This document shows positions 710 to 53,446 of a stretch of DNA of 64,000 bases, piece by piece (within the stretch, counting starts at the first letter, position 1; each line of letters starts with the position of its first letter). Origin of the DNA: a virus; the IMG/VR virus record IMGVR_UViG_3300045988_133829, positions 19,257-83,256 of that record; one strand, given 5' to 3'. The notes below the pieces were generated by a model, which worked only from the letters and a program-made list of their open reading frames with translations, did not search any database and was not told the DNA's origin. Made by a program: the position numbers and the translations under genes.

Positions 710-1444
710 TTACTTCATTATCTTTTTAAGTTTACGATACATTGCAGCCGCACGAACTGAATTATATTCCATTCCTGTAGCTGTCTTTTGATTCAGATTA
801 TTCAATTTTTGTGCAATATCTCCCCAAATTTCGTAGTTTCTAGGCTCTCCCTTATCTTTTATCCAATCAGTAATGAAAGCCCAAAAAAACACATTACTTT
901 CATTAATACGTGCATTTTCTCGCCTTTTGTTTGCGGACTCATCATGCATCTTATTTATTGAAACTATTCTATCTGTAGAACTATTCTTTCCCCACAATTC
1001 TTTTGTTCCTCCTGTTTGCTCATTACGTTTTTTCTTTGCTGCTAAAGCCGCTTTTGTACGTATGCTAACCAACAGTGCTTCTCTTTCAGCCAAACTGAAG
1101 AACAATGTCAAAGTAAATTTGTCACTATTAGGTAAATCACAAAAAACAATATTGTTTTCACCAATTTCTGCTAATACCTGTAGTGCTTCTAATGTATTAC
1201 GGAAACGATCGCACTTAGCAATAATCAATTTAGCATTTTCTTTCTTTGCGTGTTCAATCGCTTTCCGTAATTCCGTACATTTAGACAATTCCGTTCCGGT
1301 ATAAATTTCTTCATAGTCCGCCAACAACAAACCGTTATCTTTTTCTATGAAGTAATTTATAATGTCTTTTTGTGCCTCAAGTCCTAAACCAGACCGCCCT
1401 TGTTTTTGCGTTGACACCCTACGCCAAGAAATATACTTATTCAT
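710..1444 (-). CDS. small serine recombinase (resolvase/invertase family), 244 aa
   Basis: N-terminal YISWRRVSTQKQ (catalytic Ser motif), AKCDRFRN (DRLxR-like), AEREALLVSIRTKAAL (E-helix), C-terminal HTH-like IAQKLNNLNQKTATGMEY; too short for a large serine integrase. Confidence 0.85.
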   Translation of the reverse strand: MNKYISWRRVSTQKQGRSGLGLEAQKDIINYFIEKDNGLLLADYEEIYTGTELSKCTELRKAIEHAKKENAKLIIAKCDRFRNTLEALQVLAEIGENNIVFCDLPNSDKFTLTLFFSLAEREALLVSIRTKAALAAKKKRNEQTGGTKELWGKNSSTDRIVSINKMHDESANKRRENARINESNVFFWAFITDWIKDKGEPRNYEIWGDIAQKLNNLNQKTATGMEYNSVRAAAMYRKLKKIMK

Positions 1445-23126: not shown

Positions 23127-23579
23127 TTACTTTCTAGTTTTGATTATAAACTTCGTCCATGCATAATAATGGCTGTTTTCAAGATAATTATTATCTTTTT
23201 CAGCCAATCGAGCTTCTTGTTCAAAAGAGACTTCTCTATAAGCTATACTTTGTTTATCTCCTTTATCCGAAGAGAATAGACCAATACAACGCCTAATAAT
23301 ATATTCCAATCCGTACCATAAATAGAATATGATGGGCGATAAAGCCAAATACCATGCCGAATAATCCCAAATAAGTAGCCCAATCCAAAGCAATAAACCG
23401 GAAGCAACCGTAAGTTCTATCCATTGTCTGGCATGAGTACATTCATGGTTTATCGTTTCTTGTGTCAACTTCTTGTATATAGTCAATACCCAAGCAAATA
23501 TTGTTATTGTTGAATAACCATCAAATAAAATAGCTTTAGCTATTTTTGAATCATAAAATACTTTCTTCATTATAATCAA
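23127..23579 (-). CDS. membrane protein with HExxH motif (HECTH), 150 aa
   Basis: INHECTHARQW followed by hydrophobic segments (LTVASGLLLWIGLLIW, YLALSPIIFYLWYGL). Confidence 0.55.
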   Translation of the reverse strand: MIIMKKVFYDSKIAKAILFDGYSTITIFAWVLTIYKKLTQETINHECTHARQWIELTVASGLLLWIGLLIWDYSAWYLALSPIIFYLWYGLEYIIRRCIGLFSSDKGDKQSIAYREVSFEQEARLAEKDNNYLENSHYYAWTKFIIKTRK

Positions 23580-24099
23580 ATTTTAATTTAGTTGGATAAT
23601 TCTTTTCGTAATCGTAATCGTCAGCCTCATCTATATCGGTTATAGCATTTACATTAGCAATATGCCTTTGTGTAACACTATTACAAGTATCTGCGTATAT
23701 CTCAATATCATCAAGCATATTTAAGATAAAATCAACAGGGAGAACATACTCTTTCTGATTATACCAAATACTTGATGTTTTAATGTTTCTGCTCTTTTTA
23801 ATCGCAACAGCATTCATTATGGAAGTTCGTAAATCTTTGCTTAACCAAATACTATCTCCATTGAGCAAGAAACTATTTACATATTCAGATTTATCGTACC
23901 TCTGAATATTGTATAATGTATGCTCTTTTACTTCTTCTAAAGTAAATATGTGTTCTTGAAGGATAGGACGACCATTTACATCTTCTACTATCTCCTTTCC
24001 ATCGCTTTGCCCATCAAGTAATGATTGCCAATATTCGTCTGTTATTTCTACCGAACCCTCTATTGGTTCATCGTAAAATCCTTGCTTCCAGTATTTCAT
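23551..24099 (-). CDS. hypothetical protein, possible tail-fibre assembly/chaperone-type protein
   Basis: Position directly downstream of a fibre gene. N-terminus FYDEPIEGSVEITDEYWQSLLDGQSDGKEIVEDVNGRPIL resembles fibre-assembly proteins, judged by eye only. Confidence 0.4.
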   Translation of the reverse strand: MKYWKQGFYDEPIEGSVEITDEYWQSLLDGQSDGKEIVEDVNGRPILQEHIFTLEEVKEHTLYNIQRYDKSEYVNSFLLNGDSIWLSKDLRTSIMNAVAIKKSRNIKTSSIWYNQKEYVLPVDFILNMLDDIEIYADTCNSVTQRHIANVNAITDIDEADDYDYEKNYPTKLKFDYNEESIL

Positions 24100-24131: not shown

Positions 24132-24163
24132 TCAAATCTATCTCAAAACGGTTATCAAAAGTT
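24132..24163. repeat. IR-L of a 32-bp inverted repeat pair
   Basis: tcaaatctatctcaaaacggttatcaaaagtt; its reverse complement matches 24571-24602 at 31/32 positions. Confidence 0.9.
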
Positions 24164-24179
24164 ATAATGAAATTTGTAA

Positions 24180-24290
24180 AATCAGCGTGGTGTAACTTTA
24201 GTGATTACTGCCTTTATTATAAAATCTATACAGTATGGGACTATTGCCGGAGAAGCTTATAATTGGATTGCAATAGGTAGATGGAAATAG
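24180..24290 (+). pseudogene. remnant of an alternative tail-fibre C-terminus (opposite strand)
   Basis: Translates NQRGVTLVITAFIIKSIQYGTIAGEAYNWIAIGRWK*. It ends like the intact fibre (..NFTWLAIGRWK*) but uses different codons. There is no ATG, and three in-frame stops (24165, 24168, 24177) separate it from IR-L. Confidence 0.6.
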
Positions 24291-24869
24291 TTACTTCCAA
24301 CGTCCTATAGCTAACCATGTAAAATTCCAGCTAGTCCAAACAATAGCCGGAGTTGAATTTATTCCACGGGTGAGAACTCTACAATATGATGTATATTTAC
24401 CATTAAGGTCATACCCCGGAGCATATATAAAAGATTCACTTGTATTATTTACTGCTCCAGTGAAATAAATGTTATAATCAGTATTATAGAAAGTGGTAGG
24501 AAAATATAGATTAATTGCTCCCCCCGTTGCTCCAACTCTTGTTCCCCACTGAATCATCAGCCCATTACTAAACTTTTGATAACCGTTTTTAGATAGATTT
24601 GAGCCTGAATTCCAATCAATTACTTCACCAACTCCAAGTCCAGCATTAACAAACGTATTACTACTGTTAAGCTTGTAAATTTTATCCCCTTTTACATTTA
24701 CTAGCATTCCTTCTTTTCTTCTTGCAGCAGGAATAGCATTCATCTCGCTTACACTATCTACTGTTCTATATCCTCCTACACCATATTTTTCGTCATGAGT
24801 AGCATATTCGTCTGAATCAGTATAGGGAACTATTTTAGATGCAACATTTGTACCTTTAATTTCTGCCAT
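24291..24869 (-). CDS. short tail fibre protein (192 aa)
   Basis: N-terminal 65 aa are paralogous to the N-terminus of the 684-aa fibre. The C-terminal part has NGLMIQWG ... WLAIG, a pattern I recall from a widespread phage fibre C-terminal domain (gp53-like; name from memory). Confidence 0.7.
   Translation of the reverse strand: MAEIKGTNVASKIVPYTDSDEYATHDEKYGVGGYRTVDSVSEMNAIPAARRKEGMLVNVKGDKIYKLNSSNTFVNAGLGVGEVIDWNSGSNLSKNGYQKFSNGLMIQWGTRVGATGGAINLYFPTTFYNTDYNIYFTGAVNNTSESFIYAPGYDLNGKYTSYCRVLTRGINSTPAIVWTSWNFTWLAIGRWK
24571..24602. repeat. IR-R of the 32-bp inverted repeat pair (inside fibre ORF 24291..24869)
   Basis: aacttttgataaccgtttttagatagatttga; encodes SNLSKNGYQKF on the minus strand. 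Confidence 0.9.
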
Positions 24870-24923: not shown

Positions 24924-26978
24924 TTATTTAAATTCAATGGAGAGGACTCCGGTTTGAATATTTGTTAATCTAATAACTTTGTAGGCTTGGGAAGAACCAG
25001 AAGCATTAGTAACGGTCATGTCAGTTACAGTTATATCTGTATTTTTCAATCCTCCCACCCATACTTGAAGACCATTATATACATTAGCAGGGATTACATA
25101 ATAGGGGTATTTCCCACCTGTACAGTCGAAATTAGTTGACTCCATAAGTCTATTGTCTGCCCAAGTACTACCTTCTAACGCAAGAACTTGTGCATTAGTA
25201 AGTGATGTATTTGCAGAAGTACCCCAATATTTTTTGTTTTTAAAAAATACATAGTAAACCTTAGAAGCACTTTGAGAACCATACGTAGCTGTTACAGTTA
25301 GTTTTTGGTTTGCTGTAACTGCTTTTGTTGGAGTCCACGTCTGTTTATCACTTGAAATACTGCCGGATAGAGTAGGTTCACCTACAACATTTATATTAGA
25401 CTCTGATGTGACATTAGTTCCTTTACGGGAAACAGATATATTAATAGTTGGAGTGTACGAACTCCCCTTCTCAAATACAGAATTCGAAGATGGTACTATA
25501 TTTAAATTTAATGGGAACGTAGCTAGTTCTATCTCTTGAAATGTATTGAACATATCTGCTGTCATAACACCTGCTTTAGATGTTGTTACAGAAGGTATTT
25601 CAAATCCATCACCATTGTTTTGCTCTCCATTAAAGTATAAAATATCATCTTGTAGAATAATATTATTACTATAAGTGTTTACATGAAGAGTTTTAATAAC
25701 AGAGGCATTACCAGCACTTCCAAAATCTCTTTTTAATTTTGCAAAACAATCTCTAGCATCTTGCGTACCTGTCAGATTTGTGCTAGTTCCAAAGTTTGTA
25801 TAAAGAATATTACCAAGGTCACCATAAAATGCGGTTGAATGAGTAAGTCCTAATGCTAAAGCATTTCCACTACCAATATTAACCATATCCGTACCAGACC
25901 AATAGTATGACTTATTTGCATTTTGGTCAATATAAATCATATCATTACCAATAGGGTTAGATACAGAACCGCTTGTAGCACTTGTAGCAGTAAATATCTT
26001 TTTAGTAGAAGTAATATACCATTTTTGTCCTATAGTCATTCCAGATGTTGGAGCATTGGCTACAAATGCAACTAACTTATCAACGTTGTCATATCCTGCC
26101 GGGAGTTGTGATGCAGAAATCTTGCCGCTAGCATCAAGACCCGCTACGCCATTAGCCTGATTCTTATTACCAATACCGTTCTTCCATGTTTCAAGAGTAG
26201 TAACCCTTCCTGAAACGGAATTTATACTTCCATCTATCGCAGTTCTCTGTGATTTGACATAAGTGACTGTAGCAGCTACAGATGGAACGGCATCATTTGC
26301 TGTTTCTGTTCCATCAATACTAGTATCTATCTTAGACTTTGGTATAGCTGCATTTGCTTTATCATAGGCTGAATCAGCAGAATCTTGTGCATTCTGTATT
26401 CCTGCGACTAGAGTTGAAGTAATTGTATTTAATAGCTTTGTACTAGGAACTCTTGTATCTGATGCGCTACTGTCCAAAGTTGTATCAATATAGCTTTTAG
26501 GAATGGCTGCGTTAGCCGTAGTTCTTATAGGTGAAATAGTACTCTCTATCGCCTTTGATGAAGCTGGATTATTACTAGTCGCATTCCATACAGTATCAAC
26601 AGTAATTATTGGTATCCCATTAATTATTTCTGCTAAAGCATTTAATTGATTTGTAATAACTTTATTCTGTACAGGATTTTGGCTTGTTGTGCTCAATGCA
26701 GCATCTACAACCATTGAGCCTTTAGGAAGCCATTCTACCCATGCCGAGCCTGTCCATGTCCAATGTAGTCCAGTATCATTGACGCGAACAACCATACCTT
26801 TAACTTTTCTAGCCGCAGGTATAGCATCTCTTTTCGCGTTAGTGTCAACACTTCTAAAACCACCTTTACCATATTCAGCGTCATGCGTTGCGTATGTATC
26901 AAGGTCAGTAAACGGTACTATTGCCGCAGCGACCTGCGTTCCTTTTAATTCTGCCATTTGTTTTTTATTTAAATTCAA
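24924..26978 (-). CDS. tail fibre protein (684 aa)
   Basis: N-terminus is paralogous to the 192-aa fibre. The C-terminal ~100 aa are paralogous to the C-terminus of the 1239-aa protein (KKYWG...FDCTGGKYPYYVIP...VIRLTNIQTGVLSIEFK). Confidence 0.7.
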   Translation of the reverse strand: MNLNKKQMAELKGTQVAAAIVPFTDLDTYATHDAEYGKGGFRSVDTNAKRDAIPAARKVKGMVVRVNDTGLHWTWTGSAWVEWLPKGSMVVDAALSTTSQNPVQNKVITNQLNALAEIINGIPIITVDTVWNATSNNPASSKAIESTISPIRTTANAAIPKSYIDTTLDSSASDTRVPSTKLLNTITSTLVAGIQNAQDSADSAYDKANAAIPKSKIDTSIDGTETANDAVPSVAATVTYVKSQRTAIDGSINSVSGRVTTLETWKNGIGNKNQANGVAGLDASGKISASQLPAGYDNVDKLVAFVANAPTSGMTIGQKWYITSTKKIFTATSATSGSVSNPIGNDMIYIDQNANKSYYWSGTDMVNIGSGNALALGLTHSTAFYGDLGNILYTNFGTSTNLTGTQDARDCFAKLKRDFGSAGNASVIKTLHVNTYSNNIILQDDILYFNGEQNNGDGFEIPSVTTSKAGVMTADMFNTFQEIELATFPLNLNIVPSSNSVFEKGSSYTPTINISVSRKGTNVTSESNINVVGEPTLSGSISSDKQTWTPTKAVTANQKLTVTATYGSQSASKVYYVFFKNKKYWGTSANTSLTNAQVLALEGSTWADNRLMESTNFDCTGGKYPYYVIPANVYNGLQVWVGGLKNTDITVTDMTVTNASGSSQAYKVIRLTNIQTGVLSIEFK

Positions 26979-29900
26979 CTTTTAAAATACCCGTCTGAAT
27001 ATTATTTAAACGCATGACCTTATAAGTCGCGGTAACATTATATGAATTTGTAACCTGCATATCAGTTACAACAACATCATTGTTTTTAAAACCGTTTACC
27101 CAAAAGTCAACACCATCTCCATAAATATTAGACGGTATAATATAATAAATATATTTCCCACCTGTGCAATCAAAAGTAACCTCATTCATTGTACGACTAG
27201 CCCATGTGCTATCCATTGATATAACATCATAATTATTTAATTCCGTTGAAGAAGATACTCCCCAATATTTCTTCAAGGAAAATTCATAAGAAGCCGCTTT
27301 CTCAATAGTTTGGTTATTATAACTGCACTTTACTATGTATGTCTTATTTGTTGTTATGGAAGTTGGAGAATTATATTCATCCTTAGTACTGCTCACGCCT
27401 GTAGTGCTGTCGTTGACAGTAGCAGTAGTAGGCGTTACTATTTCATCCTTCCATTTTATAGTCCAATATAAATATGGCGTGACACTTTCGCCCTGTTCAA
27501 AAGTTCCTCCACCATAGAAAGTACGGAACGAAATCTTAAAAACTTCGTTCATTAATTCATTTATATTCATAGTTATAACTTTGTTTTGTACTGCATTAGT
27601 TGAATTTAAATCTAAATGGTCGTCTATAGTTAAACTTCCTCCGCCACCAGTCGGTATATTAACGGTGATAGCACTAGAACCATCATACACAGCCTGTACT
27701 GCTCCTGTAAAAGTGATAGCGTTTGGATTAGGAAGTTTAGTCGGAATATCGGGGACTTTAGTCCATGCTCTATTCTTACGTCCATACAATACTCCATCAT
27801 TAGGAGCTTCTGTTACTCCTTCCGCTACGCTCTTTCTTTCTTGTGTCCATTCAGAACTTCCTGTCTTTTTTACAAGGATTACATCTTCTGTCGCAACACC
27901 ATCTACTACTTCGTTGACATTAGATAATCCTCCTAATGTCAATACAGCAGACCTTGATTGGATGGTTGTTTCACCTTCTTGGATGAAGTCGCCATTATCC
28001 TCCTGTATGTAATCTTCATCCGATTCAAGAATAAAGTCTGTGCCACCTTCTACACTTTTACCTGTTACATATATACCATCTCGGAATACAATATTTCCAT
28101 TAGCAAAATCATCTACATCTTTTCGGATAAAGTATTTAAGTCCCATCTTCAAGAAGTCAATAGAACCAATACTTGACATAATATCCTGCTTTACAGCATC
28201 AATGGATTTTTGAACGTTTCCTTTACGGATAGTGATAGTATCTGAAAGCTCTACTGTGATTTCAGGAAGCGGGTCAGTTCCATTTACTTTATAAGTGTAT
28301 TGACTGACATAAAGTTCATGTAACTTGTCATTGTATTCTATTTGTAGCCTTGCATTTGCATCAATCTGTGAAAGCATTTCAGGAAATTCAGCAAAGAAGA
28401 TACGCTTAAAGTTAATAGAGAAGTTGAACTTTTCACTATTATTAGCAGCCATATACTTGATGATAGCTTCTTTAAGTTCGTTCTCTGCGTTACGTATATA
28501 TGCAATCGGTAGATCAATATTTGTTATAACAAAAGAATCTCCGGCTTTAGGTTTGTAATTTCTAGTATTAGATGGCATTACAGTACCAAAAGTATCTTGG
28601 TCTTTAGCTACTCTAACCCATACGTTATTAGTTCGCGTATCTTGTTGTTCTGGCTGTATATTAGCCTCATTCCATTTATCTTTTTCGTTACCTGCAACAA
28701 TATTACCGTTAGAATCTACCTGAACAGGGTTCTTGAATACTTGATTTCCATTTTCTGTATTTTCTAATACACTTAGTTTGAAATTACAAGCACCACAATT
28801 ACCCGAAGTTATAGAGAAAGTCCCATCATTTCCAGCTATTGCATGGTCGAATAGATTAAAACCGTAAGCACCATCAAATTTCCTTAATCGGATATAAAAA
28901 TAAGGATGCTCTAATTGATTTGTATTAGGGTCAATCTCGTCATTATCATCATCATCAAATGCAACTGCATCTATTTCTCCTATCTTATACCCGGCTGCAT
29001 TTTCAACTCCTTTGATAGTTGGTTTGATATAGTCAAAGGAAACAATCATTTCTTTTGGATTTCCTTCTGTATATTCATTCTCAAAGTCGTAATATCCTCC
29101 TGTTTCTGGATTAATATATGTATTATTCTTAGCATTATAGAAACGTTCAGCACCCATTGTTTCTCGATAGATAGGTGGCAAAAGGTTGGGAGAGGTAATC
29201 ATATAATCTCCTTCAACCTGTTTCTGAATGAAATAATCTCCAATAGTCGGTGTTTTAGTAATATATATACCAATATTACTAAGACTAATAGTACTATCTT
29301 TATAACTCCATAAATTATATTCTGCTGTTGATTCTCTACTTATTTCAAGAAATGCTCTTTGATTTCCATATAAATAATAATCACTAACATTTACTAAGGT
29401 AGAATAAGAACCTACTATTTTTAATTTGTTTGTTCCTTCATTAAGATTAAACGATACTGTCGTTTCAGAGTTTTGGTCGGCTTTAATTAAAACCCAATCG
29501 GTATCAGCTTCATTTCTTTTATATAAAGAAAATGAAGCAAAATCCATTTTTCTTTCAGCTTGCTTTTCTCCAAATAGAATACCGCCCTTTTGTATATAGG
29601 AATATTTTAAGTTAGCCCATAAGTTTAAAGTTAAATAAATAGTAGCCTCATCAGATAAATCTATAATAGCATAATAATCATAAGATGTTTTAAACCATTT
29701 AAAGTTTGTGGTAATACCATCACTAATGGTTGGGATAGTCTCTACTGCTTGTGTATAAGGATATTGTTCATTTAAATTAATATATAATTGAGTAGTAATA
29801 GGAAGCTTAGTCTTTTTAAATTCAACCTTTTCTTCCAATGATACTTTCTCTTTATATAAATCGTTATTTACAACTTGTATATCTTCTGTTTTAATTGAGA

Positions 29901-39999: not shown

Positions 40000-41001
40000 T
40001 TAATCTGTTATTTCAACTTCGTAATTCATCAATGCATTATAAGCTATATCTGATAGCTTATCTTTATATTTATTTGCCACCTCTTTTATAAAAGATTCCT
40101 TCTCTCGTTTGTATGCTAAAAAGGCTTCTTCTTCTGTAGGGAAAACACCAAGATAACATGTTTTACCCCATTTCAATAGCGTTGCTGTATAATTTGTTCC
40201 ATTATGTGAAACCCCTATATAAAAGTCACCTCTTTTGTTTTTATTTGTAATAAAAATAGTATTTATTTCTTTAGGTACGAAGCAACAAGTTTTAGGTGAA
40301 TATTCACGGTTGTTGTGAACCCGAATGTCTTTGTCAAGAGAATATCCTTCTTGGTAGTTTTCATCAAACCATTGTTTGAAATTAGAGAAAGATAACCATT
40401 CATCACATACTGTACAGTCTTGATATGTAGTCTTATATTCTAAAGATTTAGAATCATAACATCTGCGTATCATTCCGTACCATATATCATAACTTTTTAA
40501 TAAATTCCCATTATCATCAACACAACGACCTTTATAATCATTTCTAGCAACTCCATAAATTAATGTATTTCTATCTAATATACGTTTGCTTTTTGAACAT
40601 TGAGGGCAACCATGTCTATTTAGCAAATTGTTGGGAGTTTGAAAGAAAAGACCATGTTCTGGACATATTACACATACTTTCACGTTCGATTTTATATAAT
40701 CCACTTTGGAATAATCATAATGTGGATATATTAATGAAGCCTTTTCAATAAATAATTCTGTATCACTTGCTACATTGCTACATTTAGGGCATCCACACTT
40801 TGTTGACACATGAGTTCTTGGTAGTTGCCAGAATGATCCATGTTCAGAACATACTATCTCCACCTTTGTATTATTGTTTACATATACAACTTTGGAGTAA
40901 TCATATTTATTTCCATGAACCATAATTGCTTCTTTAATAAATTCTTCTTTAGTCTTTTTTCTAGGCATAATATTTTTTTTGTTGGCATGGTTAATATTCA
41001 A
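40000..41001 (-). CDS. HNH-like/AP2-domain homing-endonuclease-like protein (333 aa)
   Basis: Two N-terminal YDYSKV...C.EHG....P......CP.CS zinc-ribbon repeats. Central W..MIRRC...V.CDEW and LDKD...N block. C-terminal AP2-like YIGVS...YLGVFPTEEEAFLAY. Paralogue of 52730..53446. Confidence 0.6.
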   Translation of the reverse strand: MNINHANKKNIMPRKKTKEEFIKEAIMVHGNKYDYSKVVYVNNNTKVEIVCSEHGSFWQLPRTHVSTKCGCPKCSNVASDTELFIEKASLIYPHYDYSKVDYIKSNVKVCVICPEHGLFFQTPNNLLNRHGCPQCSKSKRILDRNTLIYGVARNDYKGRCVDDNGNLLKSYDIWYGMIRRCYDSKSLEYKTTYQDCTVCDEWLSFSNFKQWFDENYQEGYSLDKDIRVHNNREYSPKTCCFVPKEINTIFITNKNKRGDFYIGVSHNGTNYTATLLKWGKTCYLGVFPTEEEAFLAYKREKESFIKEVANKYKDKLSDIAYNALMNYEVEITD

Positions 41002-52729: not shown

Positions 52730-53446
52730 ATGAAAAAAGGAGATGTTTTTTATAATAAATATGGTAAATATATTGTAGATGATTTACTTCCAAATAGTAA
52801 ATGTATAATATTTTGGGAAGATTTTAATCAAAAAAATATCGTATTTAGATATAACGCTAAAAAGGGTAAAGTTAAACCTAAATTGAATGGTAACGAAGTA
52901 AAATTTAAAAGCGGCTTTTTCCCATCCAAATTAAATGGTAAGCATACTGTTTATTATAATGTTTGGATGGGAATACGTAAAAGATGTCTTAATAAAGATA
53001 GGAGGCATCCATCTTATTCCAACTGTATAATTTGTGAAGAATGGCTAGACTTTCAAAAATTTGCTAAATGGTATGATGAAAATTATAAAGAAGGATATAA
53101 CATAGACAAAGACATTCTTATCAAAGGGAATAAGGTTTATTCTCCTGAAACCTGTTGTGTAGTTCCTAAAGAAATTAATTTAGCAGTCATGAATGATAAA
53201 AATAGGAGAGGTAAATATCCAATAGGAATGTATTTTGATAAAGGAAATAATGTTTTCCAAGCAAGAATATCAAAATATGGTATTCCTACATATCTTGGTT
53301 GTTATAATAGCACAGATGAAGCTTTTGAAGTTTATAAAAAAGCTAAAGAAGATTATTTAAAGGAATTAGCGAATAAATATAAAGAAAATATATCAGAAGC
53401 AGTTTATAACGCATTAATGAATTACAAAGTTGAAATAACAGACTAG
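52730..53446 (+). CDS. HNH-like/AP2-domain homing-endonuclease-like protein (238 aa)
   Basis: Same W..M..R.RC / C.EW / DKD...N / AP2-like YLGCYNSTDEAFEVY architecture as 40000..41001; the two end alike, NALMNYKVEITD here versus NALMNYEVEITD there. Confidence 0.6.
   Translation: MKKGDVFYNKYGKYIVDDLLPNSKCIIFWEDFNQKNIVFRYNAKKGKVKPKLNGNEVKFKSGFFPSKLNGKHTVYYNVWMGIRKRCLNKDRRHPSYSNCIICEEWLDFQKFAKWYDENYKEGYNIDKDILIKGNKVYSPETCCVVPKEINLAVMNDKNRRGKYPIGMYFDKGNNVFQARISKYGIPTYLGCYNSTDEAFEVYKKAKEDYLKELANKYKENISEAVYNALMNYKVEITD

Follow-up and report, generated by a model that had tools for sequence, protein, structure and literature searches.

Our analysis of a 64,000-nucleotide stretch of an uncultured gut phage genome (positions 19,257 to 83,256 of IMG/VR record IMGVR_UViG_3300045988_133829; hereafter the window) indicates that a short block lying between a tail-fibre gene and the chaperone-like gene downstream of it is very probably the fossil of a two-cassette host-range switch, which resembled the Mu G segment (for Mu, see PMC9881135 and PMC13501310) and was killed when an IS1595-family insertion sequence entered its silent cassette and stepwise deletions followed. 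The phage belongs to an uncultured gut family with genomes of about 84 kb, the host of which is probably Bacteroides. We propose that in the working form of this switch a constant N-terminal part of the fibre, 89 codons long, would be joined to an exchangeable tip of about 95 codons with a Gp53-like_C domain, and that a second, promoterless tip cassette would lie tail-to-tail with the first on the opposite strand. The common start of both cassettes, SNLSQNGYQKFSNGLMxQWG, would form an inverted repeat of 60-74 nt, and recombination between its arms would swap the tips; a single chaperone gene outside the segment would serve both cassettes.

The tail genes of the window lie in a minus-strand run, and among them is the fibre gene (24291..24869, minus strand), which encodes a protein of 192 residues with the C-terminus TWLAIGRWK. 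From reading of the open reading frame, residues 1-89 (24603..24869, minus strand) form the constant N-terminal part, which is 98-100% identical across most carriers of the decayed cassette. The variable part, active cassette A (24291..24572, minus strand), comprises residues 100-192 and the stop codon and forms the receptor-binding tip; the Gp53-like_C model (PF21882) matches residues 99-190 with a score of 40 bits, which passes the Pfam gathering threshold of 24.9. The tip (residues 92-192) is found at 85-92% protein identity in dozens of otherwise unrelated gut phages of 30-60 kb (L028-L080), with the similarity beginning precisely at the inverted repeat, and it appears to be a widely exchanged module. 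Downstream of the switch, and outside the invertible segment, is a tail-fibre assembly gene of 182 codons (23551..24099, minus strand), the chaperone-like product of which matches PHROG 188, 'tail fiber assembly protein' (E 9e-8); the homologue of this product in L020, a phage of another family, gives a weak match to DUF4376.

The window also encodes fibre-like proteins of 684, 1239 and 665 aa. An N-terminal domain of about 85 aa is common to the 192-aa fibre and the 684-aa protein (24603-24869 and 26720-26978), and a C-terminal region of about 110 aa, containing the motif ...FDCTGGKY.YY.IP...NIQTG.L..EFK, is common to the 684-aa and 1239-aa proteins (24924-25260 and 26965-27300); several fibres seem to be assembled from shared modules. 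Elsewhere, the paralogous genes at 40000-41001 (minus strand) and 52730-53446 (plus strand) carry a 51-nt inverted repeat of their own (40323-40373 and 53067-53117), and their products have the common C-terminus ...NALMNY(E/K)VEITD.

The 3' third of the fibre gene is bracketed by an inverted repeat that lies within the fibre reading frame. The left arm, IR-L (24132..24161, plus strand), codes for SNLSQNGYQK in the frame of the silent cassette and marks the 5' boundary of that cassette, and the right arm, IR-R (24573..24602, minus strand), lies inside the fibre gene and codes for SNLSKNGYQK, residues 90-99. The two arms match at 29 of 30 positions, and at 88% when extended to 41 nt; the repeat occurs nowhere else in the 64-kb window, and none of 100 shuffles gave any match. 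Within the repeat is TTATCAAAA, which may resemble hix/gix half-sites. The IR-L arm also opens the intact silent cassettes of four relatives (L008, L010, L076, L146). The repeat measures 63-74 nt in the intact-cassette relatives L010 and L008, where it corresponds to the shared domain start given above, and about half of the original 60-74 nt survives in the decayed alleles; the arms match at 27-30 of 30 positions in those decayed-cassette carriers whose two arms were compared.

Searching viral contigs with the fibre as query gave 79 loci, and tblastn together with six-frame reading sorted the sister phages of about 84 kb into three kinds. Phages of the first kind have a complete promoterless cassette on the opposite strand at the position of the stub, tail-to-tail with the fibre stop, and these intact cassettes are of type C (L008, L010, L115) or type B (L076, L121), or of type G in L145-L150, which came to light in the protein search described below; stop codons and the chaperone-side spacer come before each of them. 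The second kind has the stub seen in the window (L002-4, L009, L011-14, L016), and in the third, switch-less kind (L005-7, L015) there is no second cassette and 16 nt lead from the fibre stop to the chaperone gene. The first-pass annotation had offered the fossil of a two-cassette host-range switch as one of two readings and had advised that an intact second cassette be sought at this position in related phages; such a cassette is found there in every phage named above for the first kind. The refuting condition named in that annotation, relatives lacking a longer cassette on the opposite strand, thus does not hold, and the fossil reading is strongly supported. Cassette B is active in L008, L014 and L146 and silent in L076 and L121.

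Other mobile DNA is also seen in several relatives: an IS605-type TnpB gene (OrfB_IS605, Cas12f-like) is present in L145, L147 and L148 (3176-4408), in L164 and L165 (1157-2389) and in L143 and L144 (from about 5970). It lies either upstream of the large fibre gene or next to the chaperone gene, the product of which then has 175 aa in place of 182. Membership of the 'Flandersviridae', Bacteroides phages of 85 kb (PMC8008677), was considered; the best the major capsid protein gives is a match of 31.6% to Bacteroides phage C3_41T2LP.

The stub itself (24132-24290) is a composite of a 30-32-nt repeat arm, 51 nt of an IS end and 78 nt of cassette. The cassette-derived portion (24213..24290, plus strand) codes for FIIKSIQYGTIAGEAYNWIAIGRWK followed by a stop, faces the end of the active cassette tail-to-tail, and is an exact substring of intact cassette G, namely the final 78 nt of its 294 nt (L146). 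This ancestor surfaced when the translated stub was searched against a large protein collection, which yielded four proteins; a degenerate nucleotide pattern written from the remnant peptide retrieved the same 10 known contigs from the viral contigs and no others. Derivation from cassettes C or B was considered and rejected, as the middle of the stub fails to align with either. At 25 residues, the remnant is too short for PF21882 scoring.

The resemblance of the remnant to the end of the fibre, which had been remarked upon from the sequence alone, goes beyond chance. Were it fortuitous, only the short repeat would be real and a second cassette would never have existed; taken in isolation the peptide gives this some room, given that only its last nine residues are significantly cassette-like and that the 17 residues preceding NWIAIGRWK show no significant similarity to the cassettes at the protein level (58 of 300 shuffles scored equally well). 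However, the identity with the end of intact G extends over 78 of 78 nt at the same genomic position, and shuffling produced no repeat matches, which makes chance an extremely unlikely explanation. The codons of the two RWK ends, stops included, differ (GCA/GCT, GGT/GGA, AGA/CGT, AAA/AAG, TAG/TAA), and because G was a genuine cassette this difference reflects real past protein-level selection, as the first-pass annotation had suggested.

The middle portion of the stub (24162..24212, plus strand) is what remains, 51 nt in all, of the right terminal inverted repeat of an IS1595-family element of Bacteroides; the match to that element begins at 24154. Comparison with phage records by BLAST matched 24154-24212 to MT838557.1 over 59 nt with 96.6% identity (E 7e-18), and in that record the 59-nt sequence is present twice, in inverted orientation, flanking an IS1595-family transposase (L001, 307..1215; DDE_Tnp_IS1595, PF12762, E 1e-43). 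MT838557.1 (L001) was deposited as 'Bacteriophage sp.' and looks like Bacteroides chromosomal DNA; the IS in it adjoins what appears by eye to be a fragment of a phosphate-dikinase-type gene. Matching IS ends with differing flanks are present in Bacteroides sp. f07 and in a B. ovatus MAG, and the f07 sequences L081 and L082 share 2896 nt at 100% identity before diverging directly past the IS end. In every copy the similarity ends straight after ...TTAGTGTTCACTGCC (...ACTGCC). The element is 2.9-3.5 kb long with passenger ORFs, and the complete copies examined carry 8-bp target duplications (AATACGAA, ATTTTTTT, TTAATAAG and TTTTTTTA). Full-length copies of 3453 nt also occur at other loci of sister phages, at 2663-6115 of L169 (contig _149538) and at 2436-5888 of L171, the latter at a position equivalent to about 14900 of the window; TTTTTTTA is the duplication of one of these two copies. 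These phages have therefore been invaded repeatedly by a host IS. As judged by sequence, 24162-24212 thus comes from the end of an insertion sequence of Bacteroides; the reverse relation, in which the IS would have captured a piece of phage DNA, is made unlikely by the 8-bp duplications and the paired inverted ends. The remnant links this uncultured phage to Bacteroides hosts of the B. ovatus group.

Identification of the IS end changes how the plus-strand reading of the stub is understood. The reading given in the first-pass annotation was reproduced exactly: from 24132 it runs SNLSQNGYQKL, two stops, NL, a third stop, NQRGVTLVITAFIIKSIQYGTIAGEAYNWIAIGRWK and a terminal stop, with the three internal stops at 24165, 24168 and 24177. 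All three fall inside the IS-derived 24162-24212 and do not, as had been supposed, represent decay of fibre codons. The description of the block as a cassette of 52 codons is right for the last 26 (stop included), which are cassette-derived; ten of the others are the repeat, and the 17 in between are IS DNA holding all of the stops.

Four alleles of the silent side can be placed in a series. Allele G (L145-L150) is intact, measuring 294 nt or 97 codons from repeat to stop, and is a complete cassette with a PF21882 domain (P0003, precomputed match). Allele D1 (L141-144, L154-163) has 254 nt, made up of the repeat, the 51-nt IS end and the last 173 nt of G, with the IS end abutting CTTTTTAT. Allele D2 (L151-153) has 164 nt, 90 fewer than D1, and allele D3 (the window, 10 viral and three metagenome contigs) has 159 nt, five (CTTAT) fewer than D2, together with two substitutions in the IS end. 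The junction between repeat and IS is identical in D1, D2 and D3, and these alleles therefore have a single origin. At this junction (24154..24163, plus strand) lies ATCAAAAGTT, a 10-nt microhomology between the cassette (the end of the repeat and the first bases after it) and the interior of the IS; intact cassettes have ATCAAAAGTTTAGTAATGGG here, and the IS has ATCAAAAGTTATAATGAAA. The frame shared by the repeat and NWIAIGRWK, which had been read as meaningful, does exist in D3; however, it is accidental, because only D3, after its 5-nt deletion, is in frame, and D1 (254 nt) and D2 (164 nt) are not.

The series gives the following course of events. The silent cassette of the window lineage was of type G, and a Bacteroides IS1595-family element of 2.9-3.5 kb inserted into it at CTTTTTAT. 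A deletion, presumably running between two copies of ATCAAAAGTT by use of the microhomology, then took out nearly all of the IS together with 90 nt at the start of the cassette to give D1; a further deletion of 90 nt gave D2, and a deletion of 5 nt with two substitutions gave D3, the allele of the window. This order of IS truncation and later deletions is the most parsimonious one.

The stub is widespread, with 57 index blocks for D1 alone, and it occurs with three different active cassettes. Hitch-hiking of a neutral fossil in mosaic phages can explain this spread, and a useful element would also spread in this way. We infer that the stub has no selected function; its progressive erosion, the frame relation that varies between alleles and the existence of switch-less relatives with a 16-nt spacer are all signs that it is under no constraint. 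Selection on 24141-24271, which is perfectly conserved in 14 of 14 D3 sequences, was considered and set aside: this identity is not read as constraint, because the search pattern itself fixes 41 nt and the neighbouring fibre N-terminus, too, is 98-100% identical in most carriers.

IS ends can carry outward promoters in Bacteroides, and in D1 and D2 an ORF from the IS end (MKFVKSAWCNF...) continues in frame into the cassette remnant for 72 and 42 aa, respectively. Both points would fit a new role for the IS piece, either as an outward promoter that gives antisense RNA across the active cassette or as the source of a small protein. We consider such a role very improbable, as the 5-nt deletion in the D3 allele of the window disrupts the ORF, no good Bacteroides-type -33/-7 promoter is seen by eye, and the piece is conserved no further than its recent common origin would lead one to expect, the adjacent fibre N-terminus being also 98-100% identical in most carriers.

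The geometry of the repeat is such that recombination would fuse fibre residues 1-99 to a leucine and a stop, giving a stub of 100 aa without the Gp53-like_C domain; on this point, that a flip would cut the fibre right after the repeat, the first-pass annotation is correct. Its second reading, in which the locus is an ON/OFF phase switch, finds no support in the orientation of the contigs. Flipped isomers were sought with a junction pattern that matches either orientation, to which 10 viral and three metagenome contigs matched, and none of the 27 decayed-cassette contigs inspected was flipped. The fibre was intact in all of them: in 14 of 14 D3 sequences, in 10 of 10 distinct D1 places (24 contigs read) and in 3 of 3 D2 sequences. 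An assembly shows the orientation that is in the majority, however, and these counts are therefore weak evidence.

A working switch of this kind would require the 30-nt repeats to recombine and a minority of phages with the 100-aa anchor stub to be selected, for example through hiding one receptor-binding protein or altering host range. The arms do still match at 27-30 of 30 positions in the decayed carriers compared, the stub is retained in many contigs, alongside three active cassettes, and the phage has further fibre-like proteins (684, 1239 and 665 aa), one of which shares the N-terminal domain, such that a tipless variant might be viable. Against this, none of the 27 contigs is flipped, the stops stem from an accidental IS insertion, erosion of the stub continues, and only about half of the 60-74-nt repeat is left, the part that is homogenised between arms in relatives having been deleted here, such that the shortened arm may recombine poorly. 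We therefore regard a selected ON/OFF function as unlikely. We likewise give little credence to a co-opted IS accident, in which low-rate flipping of the 30-nt repeat would keep a reversible 'tip-off' state for one of several receptor-binding fibres or an advantage of locking would have spread the dead cassette between phage backbones. If the shortened repeat still recombines, the 100-aa tipless fibre would most plausibly be a by-product of the decayed switch.

Comparison of the arms gives information on whether they recombine in the family at large. Mismatches between arms, counted per 58 nt, average 2.4 within genomes versus 4.2 between genomes (permutation p about 0.0006, with genomes that are not independent), and lineage-specific variants are common to both arms of the same genome. 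Much of this homogenisation within genomes falls in the inner half of each arm, as in L145, L150, L076 and L121. These sequence comparisons constitute moderate evidence that the arms recombine within the 84-kb family, and only moderate because of the non-independence of the genomes. The occurrence of cassette B as the active tip in some genomes and as the silent one in others points the same way. No pair of direct inversion isomers was found among the contigs of the 84-kb family, and in a collection of 5.8 billion protein clusters cassettes G and C appear solely as short silent ORFs, never as the end of a full-length fibre; we therefore infer inversion in this family from its architecture and the concerted evolution of the arms.

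The inner 30-40 nt that co-vary within genomes are absent from the left arm in D1-D3. With the inner half of that arm deleted, the shortened arm may therefore recombine poorly or not at all. This is also what would be seen if the deletion had taken the exchange site and fixed the fibre in its active state, with the dead cassette then spreading as a favoured or neutral allele. The same orientation in 27 of 27 contigs fits such a locked switch, as does the presence of D3 in a backbone that otherwise resembles that of L010, with its intact cassette C and a fibre 97.5% identical. However, the relatives with intact G and C are likewise seen in one orientation only, and orientation therefore cannot separate a locked switch from one that flips rarely; furthermore, L009 and L010 have mosaic flanks (89-98%), with no clean replacement evident. 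A locked switch that spread in this manner thus seems to us distinctly unlikely, and decay of a host-range switch to a fossil remains our preferred account.

The enzyme that would invert the segment is a separate matter. A scan of the window for recombinases, made by eye over ORFs of at least 110 aa, noticed a single one, a small serine recombinase of 244 aa (710..1444, minus strand) that is a candidate invertase (Pfam Resolvase, E 3e-13; PHROG 125 'DNA invertase', E 1e-17); its product scores 28 bits against the Mpi family model, the cutoff of which is 272. The ORF reading shows no recombinase within several kb of the segment, and the adjacency of gene and segment that characterizes Gin/Cin/Hin-type systems is therefore not seen. 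The neighbourhood of the 710..1444 gene holds no further copy of the repeat, and a profile search did not find a relative of its product on the multi-cassette phage contigs described below. The gene stays a mere candidate because it is 23 kb distant from the switch, is also kept in switch-less relatives and was not found on those contigs. A host invertase or homologous recombination may equally well account for inversion. Two versions of this recombinase occur among sister phages (L108-L111), with widely different catalytic N-terminal domains and nearly identical C-terminal regions of about 100 aa, most of the invariant columns being in the C-terminal half; this pattern suggests a domain swap that retained one DNA-binding part.

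Cassettes with the same tip domain are found in greater numbers in another phage family. Unrelated gut phages of 30-77 kb (L017-L027, L044, L062-L066, L072, L079) have a 1082-aa fibre followed by three to five homologous Gp53-like_C cassettes, with two convergent chaperone genes, which in the family of L020 lie inside the segment. Contigs that are nearly identical differ there by an inversion: in L020 (4968-8002), compared with L066 and L064, a stretch of 1775 or 3036 nt is turned round between flanks that are 99.97% collinear. The crossover repeat of these phages is about AAGTTCTCTCGGRAC (coding for SSLGT), a sequence absent from the window, and no recombinase lies within 5 kb in this family. 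These arrays look like a shufflon-like host-range system.

One classical means by which phages change host is the invertible receptor-binding cassette, and in the literature searched we found no account of such cassettes in uncultured Bacteroides phages of the human gut. Taken together, our data indicate that the gut phage family of about 84 kb has a minimal two-cassette switch, and that an unrelated family has multi-cassette versions of which the isomers are visible. They also show that such switches can die, in that a host IS struck the silent copy here and four successive alleles still circulate. For annotation, the stub is best recorded as a fossil; neither a gene nor a designed OFF switch should be entered there. 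The stub is of modest interest in itself, and the inversion switches of the surrounding family, in gut phages that are abundant, offer the better line of study.

In the Mu G segment (Gin) and the P1 C segment (Cin), the constant N-terminal part of the fibre gene lies outside the segment and alternative C-terminal parts lie inside it in opposite orientations; the repeats fall within the coding sequence, no promoter precedes the silent copy, and a flip swaps host range. The family of the window has the same plan, with a constant 5' part outside and two opposite 3' parts inside (L008, L010, L076, L121, L145-L150), and with border repeats inside the fibre reading frame (29 of 30 in the window, where the second 3' part is a dead 78-nt remnant). 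It differs from these systems in that only a tip of about 95 codons is exchanged, that no Gin-like invertase gene adjoins the segment in the window, and that the repeat of the family is 60-74 nt of shared coding sequence as opposed to a 34-bp site. Whereas U and U' both lie inside the Mu segment, the single chaperone-like gene of the window lies outside the repeats.

The IS remnant can be compared with the IS1595 family of Bacteroides in the same way: 24154-24212 is the terminal inverted repeat of a member of that family, full copies of which have a transposase, 8-bp duplications and passenger ORFs, whereas the window keeps one end, without transposase or second end, and the piece is not mobile. 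Decayed switches also have counterparts among prophages, as the cryptic E. coli prophages e14, Rac and Qin keep an adjacent Pin recombinase that still inverts their segments. The likeness lies in decayed tail-fibre inversion modules that persist after partial loss of coding sequence, as in e14 Pin, Rac PinR and Qin PinQ (PMC12529663, 10.1101/2025.03.28.646004); these are defective prophages with an adjacent active Pin, whereas the phage genome of the window looks complete and is without an adjacent recombinase. Finally, the multi-cassette phages (L017-L027, L044, L062-L066), with three to five cassettes, resemble the multiple-inversion systems p15B Min, the R64 shufflon and the Rin shufflon of Bifidobacterium prophages, and PMC6109161 is a precedent for shufflons in gut prophages. 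These arrays belong to another phage family, and the switch in the family of the window has two positions only.
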